Shown here: one piece after another, positions 563-18,613 of the stretch
Position numbering within the stretch: position 1 is the stretch's first letter
How the letters are laid out: every line of letters begins with the position of its first letter
The notes under the pieces: model-generated
Databases searched by the model: none
What the model was told of the DNA's origin: nothing
Seen by the model: only the letters and a program-made list of their open reading frames with translations
Made by a program: the position numbers and the translations under genes
Assembly: GCF_002945325.1 (NCBI RefSeq)
Contig: NZ_CP026606.1
Location: 210,001-242,000 of the forward strand
DNA from: Methanococcus maripaludis
Lineage (GTDB): Archaea; AGJL01; Methanococci; Methanococcales; Methanococcaceae
Length of the DNA: 32,000 bases
Direction: 5' to 3'

Positions 563-624
563 AAAGAAAGCGCAGAGGGAGGGATTTGAACCCCCGCTCC
601 CCAGTGGAGAACCGGATTTCAAGT
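563..624 (-). repeat. attL: displaced copy of the tRNA-Ser 3' portion (anticodon loop to 3' end plus 8 nt downstream)
   Basis: aaagaaagcgcagagggagggatttgaacccccgctccccagtggagaaccggatttcaagt aligns to 18493-18554 with 6 mismatches. Similarity stops exactly at the anticodon-stem/loop junction. Confidence 0.9.
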
Positions 625-787
625 AATACGGTCAAAAAACGAGAAAACGCAGACGTTACATCGTAATTTAACGATTTTTCTGAAAAGAAGGATTTTCCTT
701 CGAGAAAGATGGTGAAAAGTAGTGAAGTGAAAACCGGATTTTATCCGGTGTTCAAAAACATAGTCCGGTATCCAATATCGCAAAATT

Positions 788-1474
788 TTAAAATTTTTTC
801 CCATTACTTTCCAATTTAACCATATGATCATATAGTTTTTTTGGAAGTATTGTAATTACTGACTTCGATAACCTTATTTCAACTTCATCTTCCGGTAAAA
901 CCAACAATCGTTTAAAAAATGACGATAAATTAATTTGTTTTGATTTTCCTACTTTTTTTACCGATTTATTTTTTAACATCGAGTCGGGTGTATCATCTGG
1001 GAGTTTCACGATTTGAAATCCACAGGGAAATTTACTTTCTTCATTTAAAAAAAATGGTTTTATCCACACGAAATCTCCTTCATCAATTCCAACCTTATCC
1101 AATAATGAGGAAGTAGAAAAATCAAGTGAATAACCTAACTTTTTGGAAATGATGTTTTCTTCATCCTTACTAATGGAAATTTCGCATAATTTATCTTTAA
1201 AATCAATAACCAAGTAATCCCCTTCAACCGCCCCCATATATTCCAACAATGCAGTCATGCTAATATCAAGACTTTTACCCATATTCACTTTTTTAGTAAA
1301 TGAAGGTCTTGATAAATAATAACCCCTTCCTTCTTCATCTGTTTTAAAAATATGAAATTTTCCATCATGATTTTCGGTAATCATTACTAAATCTCCTTCA
1401 TTTATGTTTAAATAATTCATTACCGACTTCATCGATGGATTAAGGGATTTTCCGAGTTTTACTGTTTTTATCAT
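788..1474 (-). CDS. transcription regulator with four tandem AbrB/SpoVT-like (swapped-hairpin) repeats
   Basis: The 228-aa ORF contains four copies of the pattern (K)hGKSLxxSxxxxhxxhxhxEGDxVxI: VKLGKSLNPSMKSVMNYLNINEGDLVMI, VNMGKSLDISMTALLEYMGAVEGDYLVI, KKLGYSLDFSTSSLLDKVGIDEGDFVWI, KKVGKSKQINLSSFFKRLLVLPEDEVEI. It is the only minus-strand gene in the element and is divergent from the integrase. There is no SD, and a TATA-like tttatata lies about 30 nt upstream of the ATG, so the transcript may be leaderless. Confidence 0.6.
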   Translation of the reverse strand: MIKTVKLGKSLNPSMKSVMNYLNINEGDLVMITENHDGKFHIFKTDEEGRGYYLSRPSFTKKVNMGKSLDISMTALLEYMGAVEGDYLVIDFKDKLCEISISKDEENIISKKLGYSLDFSTSSLLDKVGIDEGDFVWIKPFFLNEESKFPCGFQIVKLPDDTPDSMLKNKSVKKVGKSKQINLSSFFKRLLVLPEDEVEIRLSKSVITILPKKLYDHMVKLESNGKKF

Positions 1475-1604
1475 AATTTTATCTTTTTTTTTAATTAATA
1501 TATAAATATAATTGATTTTGATTAGATTACACGAAAAACTTATATATAATTATGACTATGATTAATTTACACGAAATTAGAAAAAACAATTGGAGTTGAT
1601 TATT
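1475..1604. promoter_or_regulatory. divergent promoter/operator region between regulator and integrase
   Basis: TATA-like tracts are present in both orientations (1498-1512, 1539-1551). The direct repeat GATTA(GA/AT)TTACACGAAA occurs at 1520-1537 and 1560-1577, with the exact 10-mer TTACACGAAA spaced 40 bp apart. Confidence 0.5.
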
Positions 1605-2603
1605 ATGGACGATTTTGATCTCGATGAACTGAACAACTTAAAGGACTCGAAAAAATTAAAAAAAGTAAACAATGAAGAAGATTTTAAAAAACAAATGGAT
1701 TTTTATAAAAATGAACGGATAAGAATGGGTATTAAGGAATATACAATCAAACAAGACTGTTACCGAGTTAATTTTTTCTTCAAATGGTTAAAAGAAATGG
1801 GTTTTACTCAAAATAACCTTAACATAACGACTTTTGAATTATTTTTCGATTATATGAGGAAGAAAAGAAAAATCTCAAACAATACACAAAATAAAATCAT
1901 GATTTCCTTAAAAAAATATTTCGAAATAATTAACAATCCTTGTATGGACGAGTTTTTGAAAAAATATGAGAGGTCATTTTACAAAGCTGTTGAGAAAAAA
2001 GAAACCGATTTCATCGAACCAAGCGATGTGAAAATCATGTGTGATTATTTTGAAGAGAAAAAAGAAAAATCAGCTTTTCGATGCTTAGTTTTTCTAAGGG
2101 TGCTTTTTGAAACAGCTGGAAGATTTGGAGAAGTGTTGAAAATTAGAATTAGGGATATAGACTTTGAAAAAGGGATTATTCTCTTAAGAGAAACAAAAAC
2201 GAGCATTCCAAGAAAAGTAGCAGTGTCAAAAGAAGCTAAAGATGGGGAGATTGACACATTAACATATTTAAAATTCTTTTCAAAGGGAAAAAGCGGTGAT
2301 GATTGCCTTTTTCCTTCGGAAGATGATGTTAAAAAACCAATGTCAAAAAACGCTTTCTATCGGCATTATGTGAAGGCGGTTCGATACTTGAAAGATCAAA
2401 ACCCAAAATTGAAAAATAAACACATCACGGTACACACATTACGACACTCCAGAATTGTTGATCTTCTAAGACAGAAACACGAGATAGTTCTCGTGAAAGA
2501 ATACGCCGGACACGAGAACATTGAAACAACTATGATTTATGCTCACGCCTTACAGCGTATGAACGAAACTCTACCCATGTTTCAAGAAAATATCTACAAA
2601 TAA
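1605..2603 (+). CDS. tyrosine recombinase / integrase (intact, not split by integration)
   Basis: The ORF track starts at TTG 1590. ATG 1605 with GGAG upstream is preferred. Catalytic signature visible: ETAGRFGEV (Arg I), HTLRHSRI (H-x-x-R box II), ETTMIYAH (Tyr nucleophile). Confidence 0.9.
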   Translation: MDDFDLDELNNLKDSKKLKKVNNEEDFKKQMDFYKNERIRMGIKEYTIKQDCYRVNFFFKWLKEMGFTQNNLNITTFELFFDYMRKKRKISNNTQNKIMISLKKYFEIINNPCMDEFLKKYERSFYKAVEKKETDFIEPSDVKIMCDYFEEKKEKSAFRCLVFLRVLFETAGRFGEVLKIRIRDIDFEKGIILLRETKTSIPRKVAVSKEAKDGEIDTLTYLKFFSKGKSGDDCLFPSEDDVKKPMSKNAFYRHYVKAVRYLKDQNPKLKNKHITVHTLRHSRIVDLLRQKHEIVLVKEYAGHENIETTMIYAHALQRMNETLPMFQENIYK

Positions 2604-2650
2604 TCATTTTTTTCTTACTTTTTTTACGTACTTTTTTTATTCATTTTTTA
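2604..2650 (+). terminator. oligo-T tracts downstream of integrase (archaeal-type terminator candidate)
   Basis: Several T6-T7 runs follow the stop codon directly: tcatttttttcttactttttttacgtactttttttattcatttttt. Confidence 0.35.
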
Positions 2651-2822
2651 AAAATCATATAGCAAAGTATATATATCATTATTCGTATAAACCGCTCTCC
2701 GTACTCCAAATCATATATATAATTATAATTAGTCTTCTTTACGGGAGAAAAGTATTTATATGAGTTTTTACAATATAAAAGTGTGAAAAGAAGTGCATGG
2801 AATTGCACAGGTGTATAATTTA

Positions 2823-3035
2823 ATGAACGAAGTTTTTAAAAATAACGAATTATATTCGTCAAAAGAAGTGTGTGAAACATTAAAAATTAGTATAAGAACC
2901 TTACGAAATTGGACTAAATTCGGAAAAATTGAATATCTTGAATTTAATGGAATTCATCGATTTCTTGGAAAAAATTTGAATGAAATTGCTGTAAAAAGAA
3001 ACTGTTTTATCAAAAACGGTGAGGTAGATGATTAA
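2823..3035 (+). CDS. excisionase/MerR-like helix-turn-helix DNA-binding protein
   Basis: The track starts at GTG 2793. ATG 2823 follows AGGTG. YSSKEVCETLKISIRTLRNWTKFGKIEYLEFNGIHRFLGKNL fits the Xis-type HTH pattern (L-x-x-x-E-x-x-x-x-L-x-h-S-x-x-T-h-x-x-W ... G-x-x-x-h). Its stop overlaps the start of the replication gene. Confidence 0.6.
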   Translation: MNEVFKNNELYSSKEVCETLKISIRTLRNWTKFGKIEYLEFNGIHRFLGKNLNEIAVKRNCFIKNGEVDD

Positions 3036-5544
3036 TGTACAATCAGAAACCTCAAAAATGGAAAATAAAAACAGTAATATATTTACATATACTAATATAA
3101 ATAATTTACGGTTAAATTTCCTAAAAAAACTTTTTCAAAAGCAGTTTGAAGAAATTGATGGAGAAAAATACTTCGAAATTCGTTTGTTGAATCAAAATGG
3201 AAAACCAAAGTTTTTCAAAGTTGAAAATTTAGAAGATTTTGAAAATATTGATTTTGAAGAATTTAAAAAAGAAAATGAAAGTTACAATATTTATTTTTCT
3301 CAAAATTTGAGAAAAAAAGAAAGTGGAAAGGCTGAAAATACCTATGACTGTTACTCGTATGTGGTTTTGGACTTCGATTTCAATTTAAAGGAAAAAAATA
3401 ATAATAAAGCTTTAGAATTTTGTAAAAATAAATACAAATCGATAAAAAAAGAATTGGGAATGGTTCCTTCGTTTTCTGTATTCACTGGACACGGACTTCA
3501 TTTATATTTTACTTTAGAAAAAAATACAAATTTTGAAAATATTAAAAAAATAAAAAATATTGTTGAAAATTTAAAAAATCCAAATTTAAAAGGAATTGAT
3601 AGTAAGGTGTATTCTCCAAGTCAGATATTGAGATTACCGTACTTTAATAACATTAAAAATCCAAAAGAAGTTAAAAAATCGATAATTTTAGAAGAAAATG
3701 ATATTGAATATGATTTTGAAGAATTAAAAGAAAATTTGGAAAAATTAACTCCAAAAACTTCTAAAAAAGAATTTAAAACTATTGAAACACAAGAAAAAGA
3801 AATTAAAAGAGATATTTTCTTTGAAACTTTTCTAAAAAATGAAGAATTAAAAAAAGAAATTGCAGAAAAAGACGGAATTCAAAAGAATGATATTTTATTT
3901 AAAAACTTGGCGTTTTATGTTAAGAATTTTCTTGATTTAGAAGAACTTGCTTATGAATTCGTTGAAGAATGTGGACATTCAACAAAAGAATTTGAGGGAT
4001 GGCTCAGAAAAGACTCAAAAGAAGTAAATTATAGAGAAATTAGAAATTGGGTTGATTATCACCACATTAGTGAATTGAAAAATCTAATAGAAAAACAATT
4101 GAAAGATAAATGTGAATTTTTTGATAATTATAGTATTGCTTATGTTTACGGTCGAAAAAATGATTTCAGATACTTAGTTTTTGATGAAAAAACTAAAACA
4201 GGGGCATCACATAAGAAAAACCAATTAGTTGATTTTTTCAAGGGCGAATCTACTAAATTGGGATATAAATTAGTTGATTTATTAAACATCCCCCAAATTA
4301 ATGAAGAAAATGATAAACCGTACACTAAATCGCAATTAAATAGAATGATCTTTGATAAACTTGAAGAAAAATTTGAAGATGAGAATTTCTTGACAAATGT
4401 CTATGATGAAGGCTATGAACCTTCCGATAAACGTTTTTTCGAGTATCTTGGAAACAAATACATTAATACTTACCGAGCAGGAAAATTTGAAAATTATTTT
4501 GAACCAAAAGAAAAATATAATTTTAAATATATTGAAAAATTATTAAGACATATTACTGGTGATGATGATGATTGTTATAAATATTTTAATAAATGGTTAT
4601 CATATATTTTAAAAAATCCTACTGATAAATTACCAACATCTTTGATTTTTAAAGGAACGCAAGGTATTGGGAAAGGTCGTTTAAGGGAATGGATTTTAAA
4701 TAATATTTTTGGAGAACAAAATATAGATCAGATTGAAGAAGATATGATAAATAATAAATGGGGCGATTACGTCAAAAATAATAGATTTGTGATCGTAAAT
4801 GAAATAAAAATCGATAAAAATGATAAAAAATCATCTAAAAAAATTAAAACTTATTCTACAGATAAAGATATCTCGATACAGCAGAAAAATAAACCTTTAG
4901 AGAAAATTAAAAATTATTCACATTGGATTTTCTTTTCAGATCAAGATAACCCCATGAATTTAGAAAAAAAAGATAGAAGACACACAGTTTTCAATCAAGA
5001 CGATAAGATACCATATGAAATTGTTGAAAAACTCTCACCAGAGCGAAATAAAGGATATTTGGAACAAGAATTGAAAGAATACGTTTCTTATTTGAGAACT
5101 TTGAATCCTACTCATATGGAAGTGTCTAATCCGATGATGACTAAAGCGAAAAAAGATCTATTTAAAGAAAATGAAAAAGAAATCTTTGAAGCAATTAATT
5201 ATGATATTTTCAATTTATGCGGAAAAACAATTGATTCCCTTGCTAATGCGTTAAAAAAACGAGAAAAAAATATAATAGAATATATCGTTGGAAAATTGAA
5301 TAATAATGGTTTATATTTAAGAGAAAAAAATTATAAAATTGAATTGTGGATCACAAAAGAAGGATTGGGAAAGTTGGATAACTTCACCAAATTGGAACAG
5401 ATTAATGAAAGAAATTCACTTTCAAAAATTGCGAAAAGACAAGATTATAAATATAGCACAATCCGTTCTAAGGATGATGTAATACCCTTTGAAAATCCAA
5501 AAAAAGCTATGGAAATTGAAATTTGGGATTTTCAGAATTCCTAA
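3028..5544 (+). CDS. replication protein: N-terminal primase-polymerase (AEP/PrimPol) fused to a D5/P4-type SF3 helicase
   Basis: AEP motifs: VVLDFDF (DxD), TGHGLHLYF (sxH), ILRLPYFNN. C-terminal region: IFKGTQGIGKGR (Walker A-like), RFVIVNEI (Walker B-like), KKDRRHTVF. SD GGTGAGGTAG lies directly upstream of ATG 3028. Confidence 0.8.
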   Translation: MINVQSETSKMENKNSNIFTYTNINNLRLNFLKKLFQKQFEEIDGEKYFEIRLLNQNGKPKFFKVENLEDFENIDFEEFKKENESYNIYFSQNLRKKESGKAENTYDCYSYVVLDFDFNLKEKNNNKALEFCKNKYKSIKKELGMVPSFSVFTGHGLHLYFTLEKNTNFENIKKIKNIVENLKNPNLKGIDSKVYSPSQILRLPYFNNIKNPKEVKKSIILEENDIEYDFEELKENLEKLTPKTSKKEFKTIETQEKEIKRDIFFETFLKNEELKKEIAEKDGIQKNDILFKNLAFYVKNFLDLEELAYEFVEECGHSTKEFEGWLRKDSKEVNYREIRNWVDYHHISELKNLIEKQLKDKCEFFDNYSIAYVYGRKNDFRYLVFDEKTKTGASHKKNQLVDFFKGESTKLGYKLVDLLNIPQINEENDKPYTKSQLNRMIFDKLEEKFEDENFLTNVYDEGYEPSDKRFFEYLGNKYINTYRAGKFENYFEPKEKYNFKYIEKLLRHITGDDDDCYKYFNKWLSYILKNPTDKLPTSLIFKGTQGIGKGRLREWILNNIFGEQNIDQIEEDMINNKWGDYVKNNRFVIVNEIKIDKNDKKSSKKIKTYSTDKDISIQQKNKPLEKIKNYSHWIFFSDQDNPMNLEKKDRRHTVFNQDDKIPYEIVEKLSPERNKGYLEQELKEYVSYLRTLNPTHMEVSNPMMTKAKKDLFKENEKEIFEAINYDIFNLCGKTIDSLANALKKREKNIIEYIVGKLNNNGLYLREKNYKIELWITKEGLGKLDNFTKLEQINERNSLSKIAKRQDYKYSTIRSKDDVIPFENPKKAMEIEIWDFQNS

Positions 5545-5580
5545 ATATACTTTTTTATTTTTTTTATATCGATTATTGAT

Positions 5581-6083
5581 TTGTAACCAGTTTTTTACGG
5601 GCTTAGAATGGTTATTTTCTAAAATGAAAGAATATCTTATCATTATTCTTTTTTCCAATATTTTGTAACCGGTTTGTAACCAGTTTTTGTTACATTTGTA
5701 ACCACTTTTTTGAGAACGTAGAGTGGTTATTTTTTAATTTAAAGACCATTTATTTATTTTAATTTTTTGTAACTAAAAATATATAATAAATTGATATTAA
5801 AAAAAATTAAATGTGAAAATACAAAATTGAATTATAAAATATATTTTTTAAAAAAAAAGTAATTTTCCCACTTTTTTGGTTACAAATTTTTTAAATCCCT
5901 AATCTTCCTTAGAATGGACTATACTCTTTAGAATGAACCCCTTTTTGTAACCATTTTTTGGTTACAAAATGGTTACAAAATGGTTACAAAAATTATAAAT
6001 TTTTTTAAATCCCTAATCTTCCTTAGAATGAACTTTACTCCTTAGAATGAACTCTTTTTTGTAACCATAATTTTGGTTACAAA
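5581..6083. repeat. iteron field (TTGTAACC / GGTTACAA) with two ~85-bp direct repeat units; candidate replication origin
   Basis: The 8-mer or a close variant occurs at 5581, 5663, 5674, 5697, 5767 (variant), 5878, 5945, 5960, 5971, 5982, 6059 and 6075. Repeat units at about 5885-5967 and 5998-6083 both read aatttttt(t)aaatccctaatcttccttagaatg...cttagaatgaac...tttttgtaacca...ttttggttacaaa. Confidence 0.75.
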
Positions 6084-6090
6084 TTTTAAT

Positions 6091-6239
6091 CGTGTCACGT
6101 TTTTATTTTTCTCCCCTTTCCCCCTCAAAATCAATAATTATAATAATATATAATAGTATTACAAAATTTAATTAAAAGAGTAAATATTAATATTATTAAT
6201 AACAATATTAATAATATAAAATCACGGATCCGTGTTTTT
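6091..6239. other. near-pure A/T tract (about 6128-6221) bracketed by two short GC hairpins, each followed by TTTTTATTTTTCT; candidate DNA-unwinding element
   Basis: cgtgtcacg+tttttatttttct at 6091-6112 and cacggatccgtg+tttttatttttct at 6223-6247. The sequence between them is almost entirely A/T (aatattaatattattaataacaatattaataatataaaat). Confidence 0.45.
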
Positions 6240-6287
6240 ATTTTTCTATAATTGTTCTTTCCACGAGAGGAAGAACAGGTGGTGGTA

Positions 6288-6590
6288 ATGTTAGGATTAG
6301 CAAGTAAGTTTGCAGAAAAAATGCTTTCAAATAAAGGACAATCCGTTCAAGTGACGGTTATTGAGGTTCTTGTTATTATTGTTACACTTTATGTTGCAAT
6401 GATTGTTTTAGGTTCATTAGAACCAGTTATGGATTCGGCAATTAATGATTCCAGCAACCTTGCAGGAGCGAAAGATTCCTTGACCACAAACACAGGTTCA
6501 GCATTTACAATTGGTGCAATCATACCTTTAATTGTGTTTGCGATGGCAGTTATCGGAGTTATTGCTAATGTATTCGGCGGACAGGAGTAA
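6288..6590 (+). CDS. small protein with two hydrophobic helices and a polar S/T/N linker; candidate spindle-virus-type (SSV1 VP1-like architecture) major capsid/membrane protein
   Basis: The track starts at TTG 6252. ATG 6288 follows GGTGGTGGTA. Sequence: MLGLASKFAEKMLSNKGQSVQ-VTVIEVLVIIVTLYVAMIVLGSLEPVMDSAI-NDSSNLAGAKDSLTTNTGSAF-TIGAIIPLIVFAMAVIGVIANVF-GGQE. It is the first gene of the membrane-protein block. Confidence 0.55.
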   Translation: MLGLASKFAEKMLSNKGQSVQVTVIEVLVIIVTLYVAMIVLGSLEPVMDSAINDSSNLAGAKDSLTTNTGSAFTIGAIIPLIVFAMAVIGVIANVFGGQE

Positions 6591-7013
6591 TTTACAATTG
6601 GGGAGTGATGTTTTCCCCCCAAATGAACCGTAAAATTTAAACAATTTTTGTATTCATTCACTTTTCACCTTATTTTTATAAAAAAAGGATAAAAAATTGA
6701 AAAAAATGATATAAAGAAATATTAATTTTTTTCAATTTTCCTTTAAATTTTAAAAAAATTTACAAATTGGGGATGATTGTTTTCTCCCTTTGACAAAAAT
6801 AATATTATTAATACATTTCCAAATATTAGGACGAGAAGAAGTAATTTTCTATTTAATAGAAAATTATGTTTTTCTTTAAAAAAAGAAACTTTTTTATGAA
6901 TAATTTTAAATTTTAAAGATCGCTATGATCTGCGTTCCCATTTTCAAGATCGTTTAATATATATAGTCCTTTAGACACATTTTTTATTATAAATTAAAAA
7001 GGGGGCGAGGATT

Positions 7014-7340
7014 ATGAAGTGTTTTCCGATACCAGATGGAAAAATAAAAGCATTTCCGATAAAAACTTCTGAAAAGTCAAAAAAACCACAAAATAATGTT
7101 CAACAACCACAAGAACGAGTTATTGAACGAGTTATTGTTCCTGAAAGGATTATTGAACGACCAGTTGAAAGGATTGTTGAGGTTCCAGTTGAGAGGGTGG
7201 TTGAAAAACCAATATATCAGAACCGACAAAATCCAATGTCAAACGCGGTAAAAACAATTGGTTTGGTGATAGTTTCCACATATATCGTTTTATCCTTATT
7301 GGGTTTGGATTTGCCAACGTTAATTTCATTTTTTAGATAA
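7014..7340 (+). CDS. tail-anchored membrane protein with tandem (P)VER(I/V)(I/V)E repeats
   Basis: SD GGGGGCGAGG lies before ATG 7014. The central run ERVIERVIVPERIIERPVERIVEVPVERVVEKP is encoded at about 7113-7209. The C-terminal TM segment is AVKTIGLVIVSTYIVLSLLGLDLPTLISFF. Confidence 0.65.
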   Translation: MKCFPIPDGKIKAFPIKTSEKSKKPQNNVQQPQERVIERVIVPERIIERPVERIVEVPVERVVEKPIYQNRQNPMSNAVKTIGLVIVSTYIVLSLLGLDLPTLISFFR

Positions 7341-7539
7341 TAAATTTTATTTTTTTTTAGAAAAATATATTTATTAATTTAAATTTATAAAATAATACCA
7401 TTCTTTTTTCAATTTATATATATAAGATTATTTATTCATACATATATTAATAATAGTAATACTTATATATTATTAAGACTATATATATTTTCATTGATTT
7501 TTATGGAAAAAATGTTTTAATAAAAATGGTGAGGTGGAA

Positions 7540-7821
7540 ATGCTTGGAAGTCAGAAAAATATGTCAAAAACTCAAATTATATTCATTGGATTTGGGAATA
7601 TTTGTCTAACTCTTGTATATTGGTATATATTGGTTTTTATCGTTGGGCAACTTGATGTTGCTTTCTATCCATTAGTTAATGGATATACAACTTACATGGA
7701 ATGGTATCCGTATATCGTTTTATTAGTAAACTATCACCCGATCTTAATAGTTCTCTACTGTGTTGCTTGGATGTACTTTAGGGGAAACGAGGTCGATGCT
7801 TCAAGAAATGTGATTTATTAG
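7540..7821 (+). CDS. small integral membrane protein (2-3 TM)
   Basis: ATG 7540 follows GGTGAGGTGG (the track start GTG 7534 lies inside the SD). Hydrophobic segments: IIFIGFGNICLTLVYWYILVFIVG and YIVLLVNYHPILIVLYCVAWMYF. Confidence 0.6.
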   Translation: MLGSQKNMSKTQIIFIGFGNICLTLVYWYILVFIVGQLDVAFYPLVNGYTTYMEWYPYIVLLVNYHPILIVLYCVAWMYFRGNEVDASRNVIY

Positions 7822-7830
7822 GTGATAGAA

Positions 7831-8205: not shown

Positions 8206-8217
8206 TGGTGGTGATAG

Positions 8218-8577: not shown

Positions 8578-8625
8578 ATCTTTATTTTTAATTTTAAATG
8601 GTTTTAAAACAAATGGTGGTGATAA

Positions 8626-11600: not shown

Positions 11601-12324
11601 TAAATTCAATATTAAAAATCAAATTATCGAAAAAGAAGTTTCAAAAAGTCCAAAAGCACCAAAAACAAGTTTAAATAAAACATTTAAAGAAACTAAACCG
11701 ATTTCAAAATCAAAACAAACAATACAAGTTTCAAAAACAAATAAAAATAAAATAAATACAAAAATTACAACTAAAACAAAAACAAGAACTCCAACGCTTA
11801 TTAAAAGTAAAAAGAACATCAAATCAATTAATAATAATTTAAAAATCAAAAATCCGATGAAAAAATTAAATCCAAAAGGAAAAAAAATTAAAAATCCAAA
11901 TAACTTGAAATACCCAATCGGTATGGGAACAATGGGAATTGGTGTCAACTTAGGGTTGAATTCAAAAAATAGACAAAAGAATTTGGCAAAACCATTCTTA
12001 AATACAAAAGCAAATAATTTAAGAAAACAAAAGGTTTCAGATATTCAAAGAATGAAAGTGGGAACAACTTCCCCACAAATCCAAAGATTGAAAACTGATA
12101 CCATTCAGATTTCAGATATTGGAAGTTTGGGTGGTGTATTGATTGATAGAATCGATCCGGTCGATGTTCCAATTATTAAATCAATTTCAAGAAGTGACAC
12201 AAATCCAATTTCCACAAAAGGAAATTCAAAAAGAAAAAATAATAAAATTAGAAAAACTCAAAAAGAAATTAAAAATATTAAAAAATGGAATATCGGTGGA
12301 TTTGGATCCGCGTTTTTGAAATAA
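8626..12324 (+). CDS. 1232-aa structural/adhesion or DNA-transfer protein (function unknown) with a central Gly/hydrophobic region and a very Lys-rich C-terminal third
   Basis: ATG follows GGTGGTGATAA. No obvious signal peptide. The hydrophobic/Gly-rich stretch TRGLNTVGGIAVGLTDLTVGTGYAIY ... GTALLVAPVLKGAGKVGKS is encoded at about 10072-10396. The K/N/T-rich low-complexity region is encoded at about 11630-11915. Confidence 0.7.
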   Translation: MAIRSGETHYDSDGNAYRVSGSTATKIGDSSGAKYKTSSINVKAGSNGSSSKSNSSSSNSTSIESIKKDLASGKRSTGANSNVATANGKVFQNLKNKYGLDKAKELYNSYKRNILTAKQELENEQNAKIQKVIEKRYSKIGTSGKNYKSSINEVILDKEGNIVALRNKKSGQIVAGSGVAYGGQAEKNYKKWGLSKQLDNAIDNVNNKRENQYNQDLKFTNSITITPSMHQIEKDGKLYIYDHNEDGTFSTYIINKNQSRYNNGTIEFTDNAILENAGEYQKDYTKLNDILNERYTSGNEYTGRISLFDIAKEQGVSLQIDQQGDKTVLYDSTGTIYGIYNSDDIEIKGLNIYTKNDDYIYSSSKLETEGFVNPVTKEEMKYYVNNKGEKLIINKKDENTYKYQDDMEPVEKLKQLEMDIISNPKETIKRGVSYLGDKFNINSKYTDVANKGVNYLNVFGTEDVGQIEGKIRNIDTKDTVTTRGLNTVGGIAVGLTDLTVGTGYAIYKDSKNNRKNNVVLTQKDRYLGNAGSSILSTHGKTMAVGMVQPVKNLIVDRDFSIENTLGTALLVAPVLKGAGKVGKSAIAKSPKPVFEIAIGKNIAGKTNYFGVKTGVKTSSKIKINTLEVGTKSKTGFNQLAKENIKVDKNSISFDDGIKSDLVIKSTKERTVKTNDKITNVKNVVDTEGNKLSKKVDISKTNEGYKIVGNVAKNDKFINYNVETGKNFINRDFYNSNKYGTRYNFNNVKILKDKSKLYEKSDLNSNKHIDLKKIKNKEYMKENYQEVKFEENKNIKGDFSHNKNSNLYLENLSGKKIVVRGNKGFIKNGKSKSINNIIQMGEKYHLNEITGTKYGAFKKLTRNNKVYQQKKTVKSDNHLNINDIRNNKIKPVGEIEITEFGTNEGLKGNNIINLGENTGYVSEIQINGVGLSKHNFNTPMKKNGFIKRDGFKKTNQKIYEWKENGQGTKIINEEIIQNRNFALKSQKRNSNTIKFNIKNQIIEKEVSKSPKAPKTSLNKTFKETKPISKSKQTIQVSKTNKNKINTKITTKTKTRTPTLIKSKKNIKSINNNLKIKNPMKKLNPKGKKIKNPNNLKYPIGMGTMGIGVNLGLNSKNRQKNLAKPFLNTKANNLRKQKVSDIQRMKVGTTSPQIQRLKTDTIQISDIGSLGGVLIDRIDPVDVPIIKSISRSDTNPISTKGNSKRKNNKIRKTQKEIKNIKKWNIGGFGSAFLK

Positions 12325-12332
12325 TTATTATC

Positions 12333-12349
12333 TTTTTTTACATTTTTTT
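12333..12349 (+). terminator. two T7 runs after the 1232-aa gene (archaeal oligo-T terminator candidate)
   Basis: tctttttttacattttttta lies immediately after the stop at 12324. Confidence 0.4.
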
Positions 12350-12632
12350 AATAAAATTTACAAATATTGTTTTTAACGTTTTCTTTTAATAATTTAAATG
12401 TTTTAAATGAATTCTTTTAATTATTTTATATTTTCATCATGTTTGTGGTGTGAATCGGTAGGCGTTCACATTCATATTTGTGATAGAAATTACTTTTTTT
12501 TAGAAAATTTTTTATATTGGTGTGAGTTGTATATATCATAATATATATACTTATCGAAAGATTTATATAGTATTAGTTTCAAAGACTTATAATGTAAGGA
12601 TGTGTGTATATTGACATACAGGTGATGTAAGT

Positions 12633-12836
12633 TTGGAAAGAATAGGAAATGATGGAAACTTAATTGAAGAGTTCTACTACACGATCCCACAAATCGCGAA
12701 ATTCTATAATGTTTCAAATTCTACTATTAGGAGTCTAATTAAGGAGAAAAAATTGAAAGGTCAAAAGATAGGGAAAAATTATAGAATTCTTGGAAAAAAT
12801 TTTAACGAATATTTATTTAATCAAAATAAATTTTAA
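12633..12836 (+). CDS. excisionase/MerR-like HTH protein (paralogue 2)
   Basis: TTG start lies 6 nt after AGGTGAT. YYTIPQIAKFYNVSNSTIRSLIKEKKLKGQKIGKNYRILGKNFNEYL has the same pattern as the 2823-3035 product. Confidence 0.55.
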   Translation: MERIGNDGNLIEEFYYTIPQIAKFYNVSNSTIRSLIKEKKLKGQKIGKNYRILGKNFNEYLFNQNKF

Positions 12837-12872
12837 AATGGAAGAACAATTGGATTTTTCCGGTGGTGATAA

Positions 12873-13181
12873 GTGTTTATCAATTATGAATTGTACAATG
12901 TACGTCAGATAGCAGATAGATTTAATTTAACTCCACAGGCAATTTATTATTGGATTAGATGTGGAAAATTACACTATTCAAAAAAGAATAATCGATATTC
13001 CGTGTTGGGTTATTCGATAAATCAGATAATACGAGAAAAAAATTGGAAAAAAAGAAATCAAGAATTTAAGAAAAATAAAAAATTTAAAATAAAAAATAAT
13101 TTTCAAAAAAATAATTTAAAAATCGAAAGAACTTCTTATCATTTAAAAACGTTGCAAAGGGCAACAGGTGGTGAGAATTAG
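12873..13181 (+). CDS. excisionase/MerR-like HTH protein with basic C-terminal tail (paralogue 3)
   Basis: GTG start follows GGTGGTGATAA. HTH-like segment: LYNVRQIADRFNLTPQAIYYWIRCGKLHYSKKNNRYSVLGYSINQII, followed by a K/N-rich tail. Confidence 0.55.
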   Translation: MFINYELYNVRQIADRFNLTPQAIYYWIRCGKLHYSKKNNRYSVLGYSINQIIREKNWKKRNQEFKKNKKFKIKNNFQKNNLKIERTSYHLKTLQRATGGEN

Positions 13182-13587
13182 ATACGTTGGTCAAAAAACG
13201 GTAGAGAAAAAGTCTATTGATGAAAAAATTTTAACATTAAAAAATAAAAAAGTATCATACAATATAATTTATAATAAAAATAAAGAAAGAATTAACTTTA
13301 ATTTCAAAAAAATGGAAGAATTATTGGAAGAATTGCAAAAAAAACTAAATGTAACGGAATTGAGTTCAAACGATTTAAAAATTACAAAAAAAGAATTATT
13401 AAAAGTATATTCGAATTATTTGACCTTAACGGAGAAAGAAAAAAGAATTTTTGAATTAAAAACGGAAATTCAAAAGAGAAAAAAACATCATACAATTCTC
13501 GAAATCCAACAGAAAGAAATTCCGTTGAAGATTGAAGATATTCAAAAAGAAATAATGATTCTTGAAATACAGAAAAATAGACAATGA
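13168..13587 (+). CDS. hypothetical Lys/Glu-rich coiled-coil protein
   Basis: 139-aa ORF overlapping the previous gene by 14 nt. The start is uncertain (GTG inside a GGTGGTGAG motif). Heptad-like charged sequence. Confidence 0.4.
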   Translation: MVRIRYVGQKTVEKKSIDEKILTLKNKKVSYNIIYNKNKERINFNFKKMEELLEELQKKLNVTELSSNDLKITKKELLKVYSNYLTLTEKEKRIFELKTEIQKRKKHHTILEIQQKEIPLKIEDIQKEIMILEIQKNRQ

Positions 13588-13622
13588 GGTGATGAATTAG
13601 TTTTAAAAAATGGTGATAATAA

Positions 13623-14075
13623 ATGGTAGAAATTAACGCAGATGATAGTATATGTAATGTTTGTTTGGGTTTTGGTTTGAAAATCAATCCAGAAATTGAG
13701 TATTTGAAAAATAAACCGATAGGAACGCTTTTTGGAGAATATGAAAAGTTAAAAGAAGAATTATTCTTAGAAGAAGAACTGTATTTGGAAGATCAGATAA
13801 TCCGCGATATTAATAAAGTTTTTATCGATTGGGAAAAAGAAAAAATCGATTTAATAAAAGAAATCGATTATCCGGTCAATTTCGGATCTGAAATCCTTAA
13901 AAAATACAAAAAAGAAGGAATCGAAGTTACTGAAAAATCAATTAAAAAATATAAAGAAGAAATTGAAAATCGAGAAGAACAAATGAAGGAAAGAAGATTG
14001 AAGATGAATTCAATTATGGAAAAAATAAAATTCATAAAAATTCTGATGGATTCGATAGTAGAAATAATTTATTAA
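13623..14075 (+). CDS. hypothetical Glu/Lys-rich protein with a single N-terminal CxxC
   Basis: ATG follows GGTGATAATAA. 150 aa. No recognisable catalytic motif. Confidence 0.45.
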   Translation: MVEINADDSICNVCLGFGLKINPEIEYLKNKPIGTLFGEYEKLKEELFLEEELYLEDQIIRDINKVFIDWEKEKIDLIKEIDYPVNFGSEILKKYKKEGIEVTEKSIKKYKEEIENREEQMKERRLKMNSIMEKIKFIKILMDSIVEIIY

Positions 14076-14105
14076 TAATTTATTTTATTTTTTAGGTGGT
14101 TAAAA

Positions 14106-14189
14106 ATGGTTAAAAATGGAAATACAGATGATTTATTCTTATTAAATAATTATAATTACAAATATCAAATTATATATAAAAATAAGTGA
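14106..14189 (+). CDS. possible 27-aa micro-ORF
   Basis: Not in the track. AGGTGG lies 6 nt before ATG 14106. Product: MVKNGNTDDLFLLNNYNYKYQIIYKNK. Supported only by the SD. Confidence 0.2.
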   Translation: MVKNGNTDDLFLLNNYNYKYQIIYKNK

Positions 14190-14355
14190 TTAACGGAATG
14201 AATAGTGAGGACATAGGGACATAAGTCCTTAAATGATGGAAATATTGAATATTCCGCGAGTACTATTATATAGAGTCTATAATCATTGATGGAAAAAGTG
14301 GAAATAATGGAAAAATTTGATAAAATGTGGATTTAATTCTTCACAGGTGGTGATA

Positions 14356-15390
14356 TTGCTAAGAAAAAATGAATATGATTACTGGGGCTTGGGTGCTATT
14401 GTAAAGTCCCTCGCATTTTCTAAATTAAGAAATAATTTCGATTTCCACATTGCCGTTACCGGAATCGAAGGATCTGGAAAGTCCGCACTTGCAATCGCTC
14501 TTGCTCGATTTATGGATCGGAGTTTCAATCAAAACATGAATGAAAGAATGTATTTTTCAAATGAAGCACTTCCAGATTACTTGGATTTATTAAATGAGAA
14601 CGTTGAGAAAATTGAAAACGGTTTTGAGGGTGGAACGACCGTTATTTTTGACGAAACTCAAAATATTTTCAACAGGAGAAATGCACCTACTAAGGAAAAT
14701 AAAGCATTGCTCGAAGTAATCAGAACTCAAAGAATGGCAAAAATGTGTTGCATATATGCTACACCTAACGTTTTAGAATTAGAGAATTTTTTATCCAATA
14801 GAATGGATGTAATCCTTTTTTGTTCTTCCGATAAGAAAAAGGTCTATGGAGTCACGGATACAATCACTTATGATGGAAAAGTCTACAATGGATCAAAAAA
14901 TCTTCTTTTCCAAGAGATGAAAAATCTCGATCCTCGAACATTAAAGATGTCACCGGAGAACATCATGGCTCTGTGTATGGACGGAAAATTCAGATTTGAT
15001 TTCGGGGGAAAAACGGTCTATGATGATTATATATATAATAAATACTCGTTTATTAAAGCAAAGAAAACATCAGAATTCTTCAATAATACAAAGGAAAAAA
15101 TCAATAAAAATAAACCTATAAGGGAAGAAGAAAAGGAAAGTAAATATCAAATGCTTAATTTATCAATCAAGAAATTGACTGAACTGGAAAATGATTATAT
15201 TCCCCAACATTTAGAAAAAATTGAAGATGAAATGTTTGAAGACGATTTCATCAGTCAAAAAGCAATTGCCAATTGGTTAGACGTTGGAGATGGGGCAGTT
15301 TCAAAGAAGATTGATAGAAAGAAAATTGAAAAAGTTGCTTATCAAGGAAAAAAATATATTAAGGTCAAATATTTGAGGGATTTAATTTAA
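14356..15390 (+). CDS. P-loop NTPase (Zot/pI-like or packaging-type ATPase candidate) with C-terminal Xis-like HTH
   Basis: The track starts at TTG 14317. The in-frame TTG 14356 directly follows GGTGGTGATA. Walker A: AVTGIEGSGKSALA. Walker B: TTVIFDETQ, followed by IRTQRMAKMCCIYATPN. The C-terminus ISQKAIANWLDVGDGAVSKKIDRKKIEKVAYQGKKYIKV resembles the three HTH paralogues. Confidence 0.7.
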   Translation: MLRKNEYDYWGLGAIVKSLAFSKLRNNFDFHIAVTGIEGSGKSALAIALARFMDRSFNQNMNERMYFSNEALPDYLDLLNENVEKIENGFEGGTTVIFDETQNIFNRRNAPTKENKALLEVIRTQRMAKMCCIYATPNVLELENFLSNRMDVILFCSSDKKKVYGVTDTITYDGKVYNGSKNLLFQEMKNLDPRTLKMSPENIMALCMDGKFRFDFGGKTVYDDYIYNKYSFIKAKKTSEFFNNTKEKINKNKPIREEEKESKYQMLNLSIKKLTELENDYIPQHLEKIEDEMFEDDFISQKAIANWLDVGDGAVSKKIDRKKIEKVAYQGKKYIKVKYLRDLI

Positions 15391-15431
15391 ATCCTTAATT
15401 TTTTAGTTTTATTGAAAAATGGTGGTGATAG

Positions 15432-15842
15432 TTGGAGAATTATATTAAAGTTTTTGAAAATGAGAAAATTTATTCATCTAAAGAAATAAAAAATAAAGTT
15501 TTTTTTCAAGGAAAAATTTTTATTTACGGCAAAAAGGGACAGATTTCAATTGAGAAAAAACACATTTTTAAAATTAATTTTTTAAATTTCTATTGGGGGG
15601 AACATTTAAATTTTTTATTTAACGCATATTTAACTAATATATACCGGAAAAGGAAAAATAAGGAAAAATTATTAAAGGATTTTAATATAAAAAATTATAA
15701 TATCTCTAAAAAAAATTTAAATGATGAAGATTTTGAAGAATTTAAAAAAATGTATTCTGAAAATTTAAAATATATGGAAGAAAATGGAAATTTGGAAAAA
15801 ATAAAATTAGTGGGAAAAGAAGAAAAATTGAACGGAGTTTGA
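15432..15842 (+). CDS. hypothetical Lys-rich protein
   Basis: TTG start follows GGTGGTGATAG. 136 aa. No recognisable motif. Confidence 0.4.
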   Translation: MENYIKVFENEKIYSSKEIKNKVFFQGKIFIYGKKGQISIEKKHIFKINFLNFYWGEHLNFLFNAYLTNIYRKRKNKEKLLKDFNIKNYNISKKNLNDEDFEEFKKMYSENLKYMEENGNLEKIKLVGKEEKLNGV

Positions 15843-15853
15843 GAAATAATTAA

Positions 15854-15881
15854 TTTTTTTCAAAATAACTTTTTTTAAAAT
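15854..15881 (+). repeat. left copy of the 28-bp direct repeat bracketing the three-gene cassette
   Basis: tttttttcaaaataactttttttaaaat matches 18257-18284 (tttttttcgaaataactttttttaaaat) at 27/28 positions. Confidence 0.8.
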
Positions 15882-15961
15882 GGTAAACAGGGGGGATATT
15901 ACCCAAAATTATATATGTTTTAAAAATATACAATAGTCAAATTGAGGGATATTTTTTTAGG

Positions 15962-16942
15962 ATGGGGAACATGGAAAAACAGGTTTTTTTAAATGATACT
16001 TACAATGCCTTTTTAGAGGTATTTAATACCCAAGAACAGAAGTATGTATCGAATACAACACGATTAATGAAACTTTTTATATGTACTGCGGAAGAACTGG
16101 GTAAATTAGATAATGACAAACCCATTGCTTATGGTTGGTATAACCACGGTTTGTTTTGTTTTGAATTATATAACGACATGAATTCAATTAATGAATTTAG
16201 AAAAACTATGGATGTTAATAATAATTTAAATTCTGAAAAATATGAATTAATAAAATCTATACTTAAGCGATTAAAACCTCATTTTTTAAACAATACAATT
16301 AAGTTTGATAAATATATTCATGAAGAATTACCCGATAAAGAAACAAAAAAATATTATCGTGCAGTTAATGAAATGGAATGTGGTTTTGAACGTATTCAAA
16401 ATGAAAATTCCGGTTTAGGACAATATGTTGGAGAACATGAATCAAAAAATCTTCAAAAATGTATAGGAAAACTTGAAAAAGATGTTATTATTGAATATAA
16501 TGCAGAAAAAAGAAATGATGTATTTTGGGAATATACTGATTCATTATACATAACTCTTGATAACTATGAAAATGGAGAACAAAATTTAAAAAGTACCATA
16601 AAAAATATGGGAACCATATTTACTGAAAATTTATTAAGTATAATTTCCCCATACCCTGAAACACTTTCGGGACATCCTGAACTGTTAAAAATAGAATTAA
16701 AAAAGTATGATGAAAGTTTAAAAAATAATTTTTCGAAATTTCGAATGTTTTTTAGATTTACAAAAAGTTCTAATTTTTTAAAATATGATAATTTATTAAA
16801 AGAAATCAATAATGCTGAATTTACTGAAAAAACATATAAACTTATTAATGAACATATATATCCAGAAAATTCAACAAGATTAAGGAAAGAACACGAATTT
16901 AAATCATCAAACATGAATTTAGAGTATGGGGGGGAGAAATAG
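15962..16942 (+). CDS. cassette gene 1: unknown 326-aa protein; N-terminal segment weakly resembles the SocA/Panacea (DUF4065) antitoxin pattern
   Basis: TRLMKLFICTAEELGKLDNDKPIAYGWYNHGLFCFELY compares with the Panacea-like pattern KLxKLLY...g.pl....f.aW.yGPv.pelY. The stop TAG shares its G with the GTG start of the next gene. Confidence 0.55.
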   Translation: MGNMEKQVFLNDTYNAFLEVFNTQEQKYVSNTTRLMKLFICTAEELGKLDNDKPIAYGWYNHGLFCFELYNDMNSINEFRKTMDVNNNLNSEKYELIKSILKRLKPHFLNNTIKFDKYIHEELPDKETKKYYRAVNEMECGFERIQNENSGLGQYVGEHESKNLQKCIGKLEKDVIIEYNAEKRNDVFWEYTDSLYITLDNYENGEQNLKSTIKNMGTIFTENLLSIISPYPETLSGHPELLKIELKKYDESLKNNFSKFRMFFRFTKSSNFLKYDNLLKEINNAEFTEKTYKLINEHIYPENSTRLRKEHEFKSSNMNLEYGGEK

Positions 16943-17466
16943 TGGATATATTTTTAGATAGTTGTATAATTTTTGGAAAACATATACCTAAGAATCCTCA
17001 TAATGATAATGTTAATAAATTTTATTGTTCCAACAATATTTTATCACAAACGAGCTGTGATGCAGTCAAGGATGAAGTTAATTATAAATTAAAAAAGGTT
17101 ATAATTGAAGCATATGGTGATGATGTATCAGAATTACTTTTTAGGGAAATAAGACTAGCAATCAATCATTTTTTTAAAAAAATTAATATGGTAAATTATC
17201 AAAATCATACAAATTATGATTTTATTTTTTTATATGATGAATTAGAAGACTACTTCAAAAAATTGATTACGAAAAATACTGCTGATAAAGATATATTTTC
17301 TAACGTGATAGTGTGGGGAGTAGATAAAACATTAAATAATCCCAACTTTATTACCACGGATAAAAGAGATTATACAAATAAATTTGATATAATAATTACT
17401 TCCAACAAATGCCTCAGTGCAAATAATTATCCCAATACTCCGATTAAAATTCAGATATTAAAATAA
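16942..17466 (+). CDS. cassette gene 2: PIN-like domain nuclease (toxin-like)
   Basis: GTG follows GGGGGGGAG. The acidic quartet sits in PIN-typical contexts: MDIFLDSCIIF (D6 after beta-1), AVKDEV (E45), TADKDIFSNVIVW (D115/D117), FITTDKRDY (D140). Confidence 0.55.
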   Translation: MDIFLDSCIIFGKHIPKNPHNDNVNKFYCSNNILSQTSCDAVKDEVNYKLKKVIIEAYGDDVSELLFREIRLAINHFFKKINMVNYQNHTNYDFIFLYDELEDYFKKLITKNTADKDIFSNVIVWGVDKTLNNPNFITTDKRDYTNKFDIIITSNKCLSANNYPNTPIKIQILK

Positions 17467-17489
17467 ATTTTAGTTTTGAGGGGAGCATA

Positions 17490-18200
17490 TTGGATGAAAA
17501 TGTAAAAAGATTGGAAAATGTAGTTGAAAAAAACATAGACTATCTATATCGTGATTTGGAGTATACTACTACAAAATATAATTACTATGACACAAAAATA
17601 TCAAACAATTGTAATCTAATCTTAAAAATTTATGCACTTGTTTATGGTTTAATTATTACTGCTTATGGGATTGTTGATAATATTGAATTATCTTTATGGA
17701 TATTAGCAATTGCTAATATATTTGTTTTAAATTTTGCATTAGGAATATTTAAATTTGGAAGGGTATTATGTATTCTCGGAATAGATGTAGATGTTATATT
17801 GGTAAACATAAACATGTCTTCAAAAAAAGTTTGGAATTATACTGGTGATTTATTAATTGAGTTCAATAATTCGTTATATACGTTAGTTTTTTTCGTAACT
17901 AATTTTTCAATCTATTTGCTTATTATTGCACTGATCATAAGCACCGTTTATTTAATCGCTTTTTCAGATACCTACATTTCATTAATATTATCTGATTTGA
18001 GTGAATTTTTAAAATTTTTATGTTATGGGTTAATTTGGATTTTTAATATTTATAGCATAATTGAAATAAATAAATCAAAACAAAAATATGACATACAATT
18101 AAAAAAATCCAGAATAAAAGCCGAAAAATTTTCAGAAGTTTTTGATAAAATAAGGGATGTATTACATAATCAAGAACCTGATCGAGATGAAATTGATTGA
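17490..18200 (+). CDS. cassette gene 3: multi-pass membrane protein with soluble N-terminal helix and charged C-terminal tail
   Basis: TTG follows GAGGGGAG, and there is no in-frame ATG nearby. TM candidates: LILKIYALVYGLIITAYGIV, LSLWILAIANIFVLNFALGIF, LYTLVFFVTNFSIYLLIIALIISTVYLIAF, FLKFLCYGLIWIFNIYSII. Confidence 0.55.
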   Translation: MDENVKRLENVVEKNIDYLYRDLEYTTTKYNYYDTKISNNCNLILKIYALVYGLIITAYGIVDNIELSLWILAIANIFVLNFALGIFKFGRVLCILGIDVDVILVNINMSSKKVWNYTGDLLIEFNNSLYTLVFFVTNFSIYLLIIALIISTVYLIAFSDTYISLILSDLSEFLKFLCYGLIWIFNIYSIIEINKSKQKYDIQLKKSRIKAEKFSEVFDKIRDVLHNQEPDRDEID

Positions 18201-18256
18201 ATATAAAAAGATCAGCATTAATGAAAATAATAACTTAAAATATTTTATTATAAATA

Positions 18257-18284
18257 TTTTTTTCGAAATAACTTTTTTTAAAAT
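18257..18284 (+). repeat. right copy of the 28-bp direct repeat bracketing the three-gene cassette
   Basis: See 15854-15881. Confidence 0.8.
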
Positions 18285-18492
18285 ATTTTTCTGGAAACCG
18301 GATTTAAAATTAATTTCATTTATATACTAAATGTCTTTTTTTGGGTGTCCGGACTGTAATCCGGTGTCCATTTGGTACACTTTTAATCCAAAAACAAAAA
18401 ACAACGATAAAAAACACTTGAAATTTAAAATACTCGAAAAAAACCCTACCGGATTAAAAAAAAACCTTCAAAAAAGCCGTAGATTTGAATTT

Positions 18493-18554
18493 AAAGAAAG
18501 CGCAGAGGAGGGGATTCGAACCCCCGCTTCCCAGTGGGAAACCGGATTTCAAGT
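18493..18554 (-). repeat. attR: repeat copy forming the 3' portion of the intact tRNA-Ser
   Basis: aaagaaagcgcagaggaggggattcgaacccccgcttcccagtgggaaaccggatttcaagt aligns with 563-624. Confidence 0.9.
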
Positions 18555-18587: not shown

Positions 18588-18613
18588 TCGCACTTGTACT
18601 TAAGCGATTCAGC

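Follow-up and report, generated by a model that had tools for sequence, protein, structure and literature searches.

Two kinds of mobile DNA in archaea, the spindle-shaped viruses and the integrative plasmids of the pT26-2 family, come closest to the element described here. It measures about 17.9 kb and lies in a 32,000-nucleotide stretch of the Methanococcus maripaludis chromosome (contig NZ_CP026606.1, positions 210,001 to 242,000; this whole stretch is called the window, and coordinates refer to it unless another sequence is named), CP026606 being the genome of the type strain JJ / DSM 2067 (PMC5887029). Seven core genes (t26-5p, 6p, 7p, 11p, 13p, 14p, and 15p) define the pT26-2 family, whose members in Methanococcales have an unsplit integrase and target tRNA-Ser (PMC6972569). 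In the spindle-virus families of Thermococcales, two lectin-domain proteins with membrane anchors form a conserved core (PMC12934983), and the provirus of the M. voltae A3 virus-like particle contains a cassette homologous to PAV1 ORF180b, ORF137, and ORF375 (PMC3543421). The virus TPV1 (proposed 'Sethviridae' / Deltafusellovirus) is temperate and spindle-shaped, and its gp18 is common to the Methanococcus relatives of the element.

When the locus is set beside these systems, its genes suggest that it is probably a temperate provirus, or a close derivative of one, from a Methanococcus-specific lineage related to the TPV1-type spindle-shaped viruses. It encodes the capsid-like protein and the ATPase of spindle-shaped viruses and is therefore probably a dormant virus of a group undescribed for M. 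maripaludis. An earlier note on this DNA had proposed an integrated element with gene content resembling either a spindle-shaped archaeal virus or a pT26-2-type element.

Integration site of the element

The 17.9-kb block is a self-contained mobile element, integrated site-specifically in tRNA-Ser(UGA) of M. maripaludis JJ. The tRNA gene, at 18500–18587 on the minus strand, is the sole tRNA gene called in the window by ARAGORN and Rfam. As the earlier note had described, two imperfect 62-bp direct repeats bound the block; the repeat finder places them at 563–624 and 18493–18554, with 56 of 62 positions (90%) identical, and the right copy takes in the last 55 nt of the tRNA, at its 3′ end, and 7 nt more. 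The DNA around the host aspartate dehydrogenase gene was compared with the window in ten other assemblies. In M. maripaludis L011, L014, and L017, the right flank is 99.5–99.7% identical, the tRNA-Ser is intact, and no element is present, which supplies the empty site that had been proposed as a check. When window positions 1–624 are joined in silico to 18555–18800, with 625–18554 removed, the product equals the L014 sequence over the attachment (att) site, the tRNA, and the right flank.

The att copy at the right differs from the native L014 tRNA at six positions, located in the variable arm, the T loop, and the T stem, and the gene that contains it is still called as tRNA-Ser despite these substitutions. 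Since the left copy is the native tRNA end and the right copy is divergent, the 3′ half of the tRNA was introduced by the element in a version of its own, and the crossover must lie within the ~16 identical nucleotides at the anticodon side. Six element proteins were looked up by exact sequence; all of them form singleton clusters in a collection of 15 billion proteins, and among NCBI genomes they occur in the JJ chromosome only, in contrast to the aspartate dehydrogenase next door, the identical sequence of which is found in many strains. A scan of a genome collection with a flanking host protein returned just 53–63% relatives; this was an exact-word search, with words not common to JJ and other Methanococcus.

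Capsid-like protein and ATPase

The resemblance to spindle-shaped viruses, which the earlier note had drawn from a two-helix protein and an ATPase, now takes the form of homology for both. Profile comparison indicates that the 100-amino-acid (aa) protein is homologous to the major capsid protein family of spindle-shaped viruses. By hydropathy, it contains two strongly hydrophobic helices with a polar loop between them, and it matches an alignment of SSV1 VP1/VP3, His1 VP21, TPV1 gp15, and PAV1 ORF121 (hhalign, 93.5%, P 2.3e-7). The controls, all of which scored 17% or less, were taken from the element (its remaining four small membrane proteins and its cargo membrane protein) and from pMEFER01 (25 proteins of <180 aa), and also included 30 shuffles keeping hydrophobic blocks and the reversed sequence. 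The profile of the capsid-like family reaches 85% over 84 columns with TPV1 gp15, with which it has the loop motif 'SxP..StLY' in common. A word-indexed protein search returned one relative, P0022, at 88% identity. The metagenome contig L021 (4.5 kb) carries two capsid-like genes that are 88–91% identical to that of the window, and its other genes are otherwise unrelated. The capsid-like gene is tandemly duplicated, like SSV1 VP1/VP3, in L021 (86–787) and in metagenome contig L027 (11643–12401).

The ATPase found its best match among 50,697 virus records (2.3 Gb, tblastn) in the AAA+ ATPase gp20 of TPV1 (E 1e-3). Its best PHROG is labelled 'DnaA-like', which is also the label that virus records give to SSV1 B251 and His1 ORF16. 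In profile comparisons with hhalign, the ATPase family reached 98.5% with TPV1 gp20 (P 1.8e-15, 209 columns), 96% with His1 ORF16, and 90% with SSV1 B251, as against 35% with PAV1 ORF375, where the match covers the Walker A region only, and 10.8% with the pT26-2-type ATPase of pMEFER01 (t26-14p type). An exhaustive HMMER search yielded 104 relatives among 1.84e9 proteins. An AlphaFold model built from 16 homologues (pLDDT 80.5) has its closest PDB match in the Zot N-domain 2r2a (1.5e-6), followed by the STIV2 packaging NTPase B204, and the closest viral models include ATV ORF286, inovirus Zot proteins, and a Nitrosopumilus spindle-shaped virus protein. The word-indexed protein search returned the ATPase itself only, a sequence search of the PDB gave nothing useful, and a plasmid database searched with the element produced a weak Zot match for the ATPase only. 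The IMG/VR scan contained no match to the capsid-like protein, the ATPase, the primase, or the attP-type half of the tRNA, and the metagenome scan none to the capsid-like protein.

Related elements in Methanococcus

Gene comparison indicates that the element belongs to a modular family of Methanococcus elements, of which no description was found in the literature searched. The named relatives of the ATPase come from M. maripaludis X1, another M. maripaludis strain (GCA_013761225.1), and M. voltae, including strain PS; the related elements are those of X1, contig 2 of GCA_013761225.1, M. voltae, and the metagenome contigs L021, L027, and L033. Their recurring module begins with the ATPase, the capsid-like protein (sometimes as a tandem duplicate), a ~170-aa protein, a gp18-like ~300-aa protein, and a ~90-aa protein, and continues with proteins of ~800–900, ~130, ~105, and ~930–1145 aa. 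Six module genes are present in the window element at 24–40% identity: those for the ATPase and the capsid-like protein, those for three small membrane proteins (95, 127, and 119 aa), and, as regards its N-terminus, that for the last large protein. The stretch from the small proteins to the large protein is colinear with the relatives; however, their ATPase precedes the capsid gene, while that of the window element follows the large protein. The gp18-like protein (96.5% with TPV1 gp18) is encoded in X1, L030, M. voltae, L033, and L021.

The replication and recombination genes differ from one element to another: PrimPol-SF3 and a tyrosine integrase in the window, MCM and a tyrosine integrase 32% identical to that of the window in L027, a rolling-circle Rep in L030, and a serine recombinase in L033. 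In X1 (L025 8542–21092), a TPV1-like module of ATPase, capsid-like protein, gp18-like protein, and large proteins stands directly after the same tRNA-Ser. A 784-aa PEGA protein of X1 is weakly similar to t26-5p of pT26-2, which hints at mosaicism between the X1-type and pT26-2 element families. What the Methanococcus element family has in common with pT26-2 is limited to a small first gene and this weak PEGA-protein similarity.

Weighing of the explanations

Several observations weigh against a TPV1-related provirus. The capsid assignment is a profile-level one for a short hydrophobic protein of 100 aa, with values of 85–93% and none above 95%; compared with His1 VP21 or SSV1 VP1 alone, the capsid-like family gives no significant match, and it is TPV1 that provides the link. 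A resemblance to Zot/pI and to further P-loop NTPases is also seen in ATPases of this type, and their role is not specific to virions. The two lectin proteins (ConA1/ConA2) that are core to the Thermococcales spindle-virus families (PMC12934983) are not in the element, and neither are the gp18-like gene and the ~800–900-aa protein common to the Methanococcus relatives. For the 1232-aa protein, the word-indexed search returned itself only, the IMG/VR scan gave no match, and the AlphaFold model (pLDDT 33) was unusable and was discarded. The predicted attP junction, GTGGGAAACCGGATTTCAAGT followed by AATACGGTC, had no match in metagenomes, where the Logan contigs are too short to tell.

The missing genes could also be read as those of a defective or satellite-type derivative with a reduced virion module, either decaying or dependent on a helper such as the neighbouring element or an X1-type virus. 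This would account for the lack of both the gp18-like protein and the first large protein of X1, L030, M. voltae, and L033, and it suits the tandem position beside another element; the close identity of the capsid-like gene to genes of the otherwise unrelated contig L021 suggests module borrowing. We consider it unlikely, however, since all open reading frames (ORFs) are intact and have strong Shine–Dalgarno (SD) motifs, the att sites are intact, and the element is equipped with an integrase, a replication protein, an origin-like field, a capsid-like gene, and an ATPase of its own; furthermore, His1 and SSV1 are also without a gp18 homologue, as far as tested. Quite unlikely, in our judgement, is a non-viral integrative plasmid, in which the membrane proteins and the ATPase would serve to transfer DNA by way of vesicles or pores. 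In its favour, M. maripaludis has no known virus, the predicted ATPase fold is nearest to Zot and to packaging or translocating NTPases, and similar reasoning has been applied to pT26-2; against this, the 100-aa protein and the ATPase resemble proteins of isolated spindle-shaped viruses and not plasmid proteins.

Membership in the pT26-2 family, which the earlier note had left as an alternative, is highly improbable. The element has the same type of target tRNA, a similar att length, an intact integrase, a size within the range, many membrane proteins, and an ATPase (PMC6972569), and its left-edge neighbour starts with a gene found in pT26-2 elements. The combination expected of Methanococcales pT26-2 members, a type II integrase with an att site of 53–58 bp or longer at a tRNA-Ser/Leu 3′ end, is likewise present; it is unspecific, as X1-type elements have it too, and the tRNA-Ser target and intact integrase are common to several Methanococcus elements. 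On the other side, no element protein matches those of pMEFER01 (34 proteins; blastp and phmmer) or of the L011 element (blastp), even at E = 1e-2, the element contains no T26-6p or PEGA Pfam domains, and its ATPase family stands with TPV1 gp20 and not with the pMEFER01 ATPase. With none of the seven core genes detectable and an ATPase of a different family, membership was rejected at the sequence level. No element protein matches the PAV1 ORFs represented in the M. voltae A3 provirus cassette. A head-tail virus was rejected as well: Pfam and PHROGs agree with the earlier note that a terminase, portal, or HK97-like block is absent, no terminase large subunit, portal, or HK97-type capsid being found among the element proteins, and the 'terminase small subunit' PHROG matches are weak helix-turn-helix (HTH) matches only (E 0.004–0.006). 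As for a fixed, immobile chromosomal island with a repeat formed by local duplication, nothing favours it beyond the absence of direct excision data. The precise empty site in near-identical strains, the divergent tRNA end that the element carries, and its strain-specific proteins reduce its probability almost to nil.

A TPV1-related provirus or close derivative is thus the reading that we prefer. Only tentatively can it be extended to an inducible, particle-forming spindle-shaped virus that would be the founding sequenced member of a new Methanococcus virus family, in which replication genes (PrimPol-SF3, MCM, rolling-circle Rep) and recombinases are interchanged around one conserved module of capsid, ATPase, and membrane proteins, and which competes with pT26-2 for the same tRNA-Ser.

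Predicted genes and sequence features

The features of the window are collected in Table 1. The layout given in the earlier note was borne out for the integrase, the Xis-like HTH protein, the PrimPol-SF3 protein with its iterons, the five small membrane proteins, the 1232-aa ORF, the HTH paralogues, and the P-loop ATPase. For the AbrB-like regulator, the likeness is weak and confined to one of the four internal repeats; compared with TPV1 gp28, this protein reached 55% in hhalign.

Table 1. Position, strand, assignment, and supporting evidence of features in the window.
Position	Strand	Feature	Evidence
1–131	−	5′ end of the first gene of the neighbouring integrated element, outside the 17.9-kb element	Similarity to L011/L014/X1 DNA after tRNA-Ser
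563–624		attL: displaced native 3′ part of tRNA-Ser + 7 nt	Direct repeat; 100% identical to tRNA 3′ end in element-free L014
788–1474	−	228-aa protein, four internal repeats, weakly AbrB/MazE-like; putative regulator	PF04014 E = 0.029 on repeat 1
1590–2603	+	Intact tyrosine integrase of type II (unsplit after integration)	PF00589 3.5e-26; phrog_1 2.2e-35
2793–3035	+	HTH_17 protein, excisionase-like; overlaps primase gene start	PF12728 3.3e-6; PHROG excisionase families
3028–5544	+	AEP primase-polymerase fused to SF3 helicase; replication protein	DUF5906 6.5e-15; phrog_1156 primase 3.7e-20; phrog_2478 polymerase/primase, residues 87–242
5581–6082		Iteron field, putative replication origin	TTGTAACC 11 copies; TTAGAATGRWY 5 copies; two 87-nt repeats
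6288–6590	+	100-aa two-helix protein, homologue of spindle-virus major capsid protein	phmmer TPV1 gp15 4.6e-5; hhalign capsid profile
7014–7340	+	108-aa protein, ERVIE-type repeats, C-terminal membrane helix	Sequence, hydropathy; no homologues found
7534–7821	+	95-aa two-helix membrane protein, conserved in Methanococcus element family	29–40% identical to 83–90-aa proteins of X1, L030, M. voltae, L033
7822–8205	+	127-aa membrane protein, conserved in Methanococcus element family	30–33% identical to X1, L030, M. voltae proteins; best E 5e-27
8218–8577	+	119-aa membrane protein, two hydrophobic helices	29% identical to M. voltae 110-aa protein, E 1.6e-5
8626–12324	+	1232-aa orphan protein	N-terminal ~50–100 aa common with second large protein of related elements; remainder unique
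12633–12836, 12873–13181	+	Two HTH_17 DNA-binding proteins	PF12728 1.8e-11 and 2.7e-5
13168–13587, 13623–14075	+	Two small charged proteins, helix-rich or coiled-coil by eye	No significant family matches
14317–15390	+	AAA+/Zot-like ATPase, small C-terminal helix/strand domain read as HTH-like; probable start near 14350	Pfam AAA 3e-6, Zot 2.6e-4; phrog_5484 5.6e-7
15432–15842	+	136-aa protein behind exact SD	No homologues found
15962–17466	+	Two-gene cargo cassette, 326 aa + 174 aa (174-aa named PIN-domain by UniRef)	Homologous adjacent pair in M. voltae
17490–18200	+	236-aa multi-pass membrane protein, cargo	Hydropathy; no homologues found
18493–18587	−	attR (18493–18554) within functional tRNA-Ser(UGA) (18500–18587)	ARAGORN, Rfam; tRNA 3′ part element-supplied

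The PF00589 domain of the integrase spans residues 142–321, and HTLRHS and ...MIYAH can be read in it, as in the R...HxxR...Y signature. In the PrimPol-SF3 translation, the motifs LDFD, TGHGLHLYF, and RLPYF are readable, as in an AEP joined to a D5/DUF5906-type helicase, and the helicase part is 22–27% identical to phage primases, including that of NrS-1. The copies of TTGTAACC occur in both orientations, and all of those in the window fall inside the iteron field, against 1.2 expected; since this field immediately follows the primase-helicase gene, it is a plausible replication origin.

The five small proteins contain one or two hydrophobic helices each, as judged by hydropathy. The 108-aa protein displays a run of short ER(V/I)(I/V)E(R/V)P-type repeats before its membrane helix. 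In the N-terminus of the 1232-aa protein, the motif SGEtHYDSdGN aligns with the proteins of X1, L030, and M. voltae. Virion-attached proteins that recognise the host have this pattern, a conserved N-terminus followed by a unique remainder, and a role in host recognition at the virion end may be suggested for the 1232-aa protein. Compared with TPV1 gp21–23 and PAV1 ORF676/678/898 (phmmer --max), the 1232-aa protein gave nothing significant, it has no Pfam match, and no similarity to SSV1 VP4 or His1 ORF27 was seen; the giant protein, taken in the earlier note as a trait of spindle-shaped viruses, does not resemble any known spindle-virus tail or lectin protein.

The cargo pair has its counterpart in M. 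voltae (L031 1135–3008) at 28% and 38% identity (E 3.5e-5 and 1e-21), beside a ParE toxin gene. The pair itself produced no Pfam or PADLOC match, and annotation as a defence system was rejected, PADLOC being silent. Judging from the genes, the pair may represent a mobile cassette of two genes, for a toxin or for defence.

The block is AT-richer than the host genes at its right, as had been stated: GC is 27.0% in 625–18492 versus 31.8% in 18588–32000 (13.4 kb), a bias that is real and modest. Nearly all of its genes are co-oriented, 18 of the 19 ORFs taken as genes lying on the + strand, and the common SD before them stands up as well. Its motif, GGTGGTGAT, has five exact copies, all on the + strand within the element; four closely precede ORF starts, and the fifth falls within the opening codons of the ATPase ORF, before the probable start. 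With one mismatch allowed, there are 13 copies versus 2.7 expected. Being complementary to the 3′ end of 16S rRNA, the motif is an ordinary strong SD of archaea and is not unusual. Another motif, GGATCCGYGTTTT, has three exact copies, at 6226–6238, 8268–8280, and 12304–12316 (0.04 expected), two of which, the one before the capsid-like gene and the one where the 1232-aa gene ends, stand in a hairpin-plus-T-run context; the motif could act as terminator or operator. A bacterial promoter scan gave no enrichment and is irrelevant for an archaeal host.

Neighbouring element and chromosomal context

The left flank (1–562) is not plain chromosome; it is part of a tandem array that the earlier note had missed. 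Window positions 6–290 are 92–94% identical to the DNA right after tRNA-Ser in L011, L014, and X1, and they contain the start of a gene for ~111–120 aa, the JJ product of which (WP_104837301.1) falls in the same 90% cluster as S2 MMP0782. A homologue of this first gene is present in the pT26-2 plasmid pMEFER01. In L011, the gene precedes proteins with T26-6p domains, by which the L011 element is identified as a pT26-2 member; in X1, it precedes a different element, that with the TPV1-like module. The 17.9-kb element thus sits in tandem, between tRNA-Ser and an older integrated element. Positions 291–562 have no match in the DNA of the compared strains, including the corresponding 245 bp of L011 and L014.

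The region 18588–32000 is ordinary conserved chromosome, syntenic with L010–L019, and encodes an EF-Tu-domain protein, aspartate dehydrogenase, a D12 methyltransferase, a MatE transporter, XseA, and UvrA/UvrC/UvrB; the repeats within 27689–28860 are the two ABC halves of UvrA. In L010, L012, and L013 (M. maripaludis), an 8.6-kb segment at about 11900–20600, between the EF-Tu-domain gene and an inverted tRNA-Ser, encodes a NosD/beta-helix protein of 1031–1383 aa, which suggests an inversion between att copies at the tRNA-Ser hot spot.

In KC13, of the JJ lineage, a deletion of ~82 kb (CP026606 452,644–534,795) near a tRNA-Ser gene is reported, flanked by perfect repeats of 56 bp; the authors suspected that a virus or mobile element was involved (PMC10133366). 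The published gene list of this deletion names nothing as primase-helicase or PIN protein (PMC10133366); as the list is without the genes of the window element, the 17.9-kb element probably lies outside the deletion. The two may represent separate loci or neighbouring parts of a single array. As the KC13 deletion shows, mobile DNA linked to tRNA-Ser is unstable in JJ.

Proposed life cycle and significance

We propose that the intact tyrosine integrase would catalyze integration, with the adjacent HTH_17 protein as directionality factor, and that the same two proteins would excise the element as a circle of ~17.9 kb. After excision, the PrimPol-SF3 helicase would start replication at the iteron field. 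The product of 6288–6590 would act as capsid subunit, from which a lipid-associated and probably spindle-shaped particle would be assembled, and the 95-, 127-, and 119-aa membrane proteins, together with the 1232-aa protein, would form minor or terminal virion structures. In the latter protein, the conserved N-terminus may serve as anchor, and the unique remainder may serve host recognition. At the membrane, the ATPase would drive assembly or the handling of the genome, and particles would be released by budding and not by lysis, as in fuselloviruses. The last three genes (15962–18200) would be cargo, possibly of a toxin- or defence-type cassette.

We know of no virus isolated for M. maripaludis, a main genetic model for methanogens, and to our knowledge the virology of Methanococcus is essentially empty apart from the A3 particles of 1989. 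For this candidate provirus of the type strain, the att sites are defined and both a capsid gene and an origin can be proposed; it is directly testable and could offer a virus-host system, and perhaps integrative vectors, for this species. The tRNA-Ser hot spot known for pT26-2 plasmids also hosts a second, virus-like family, and the TPV1-type spindle-virus gene set is extended from hyperthermophiles to mesophilic methanogens.

Comparison with known systems

The likeness to the pT26-2 family (MMPV1, pMEFER01) consists in the tRNA-Ser 3′ end, the intact tyrosine integrase, the same host species and hot spot, and the many membrane proteins. With His1 (Halspiviridae) and SSV1 (Fuselloviridae), the element shares the ATPase family, and its capsid-like protein matches their joint VP1/VP3/VP21 profile. 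His1 ORF16 is annotated with a C-terminal HTH, and the C-terminus of the element ATPase is read likewise. However, His1 has a linear genome and a protein-primed polymerase, and SSV1 has a split SSV-type integrase and the end-filament protein VP4. TPV1 differs in its SSV-type integrase, MCM helicase, and two concanavalin-like lectin proteins, all three of which are absent in the element, as well as in gene order; the identity between the two is ~27%, and the host of TPV1 is a hyperthermophile, in contrast to the mesophilic methanogen studied here. What links the element to TPV1 is a homologous capsid-like protein (gp15) and ATPase (gp20), the size class of the circular genome (21.6 kb in TPV1 and 17.9 kb for the element), a tyrosine integrase, a module in which large proteins come after small membrane proteins, and a regulator of the AbrB type.

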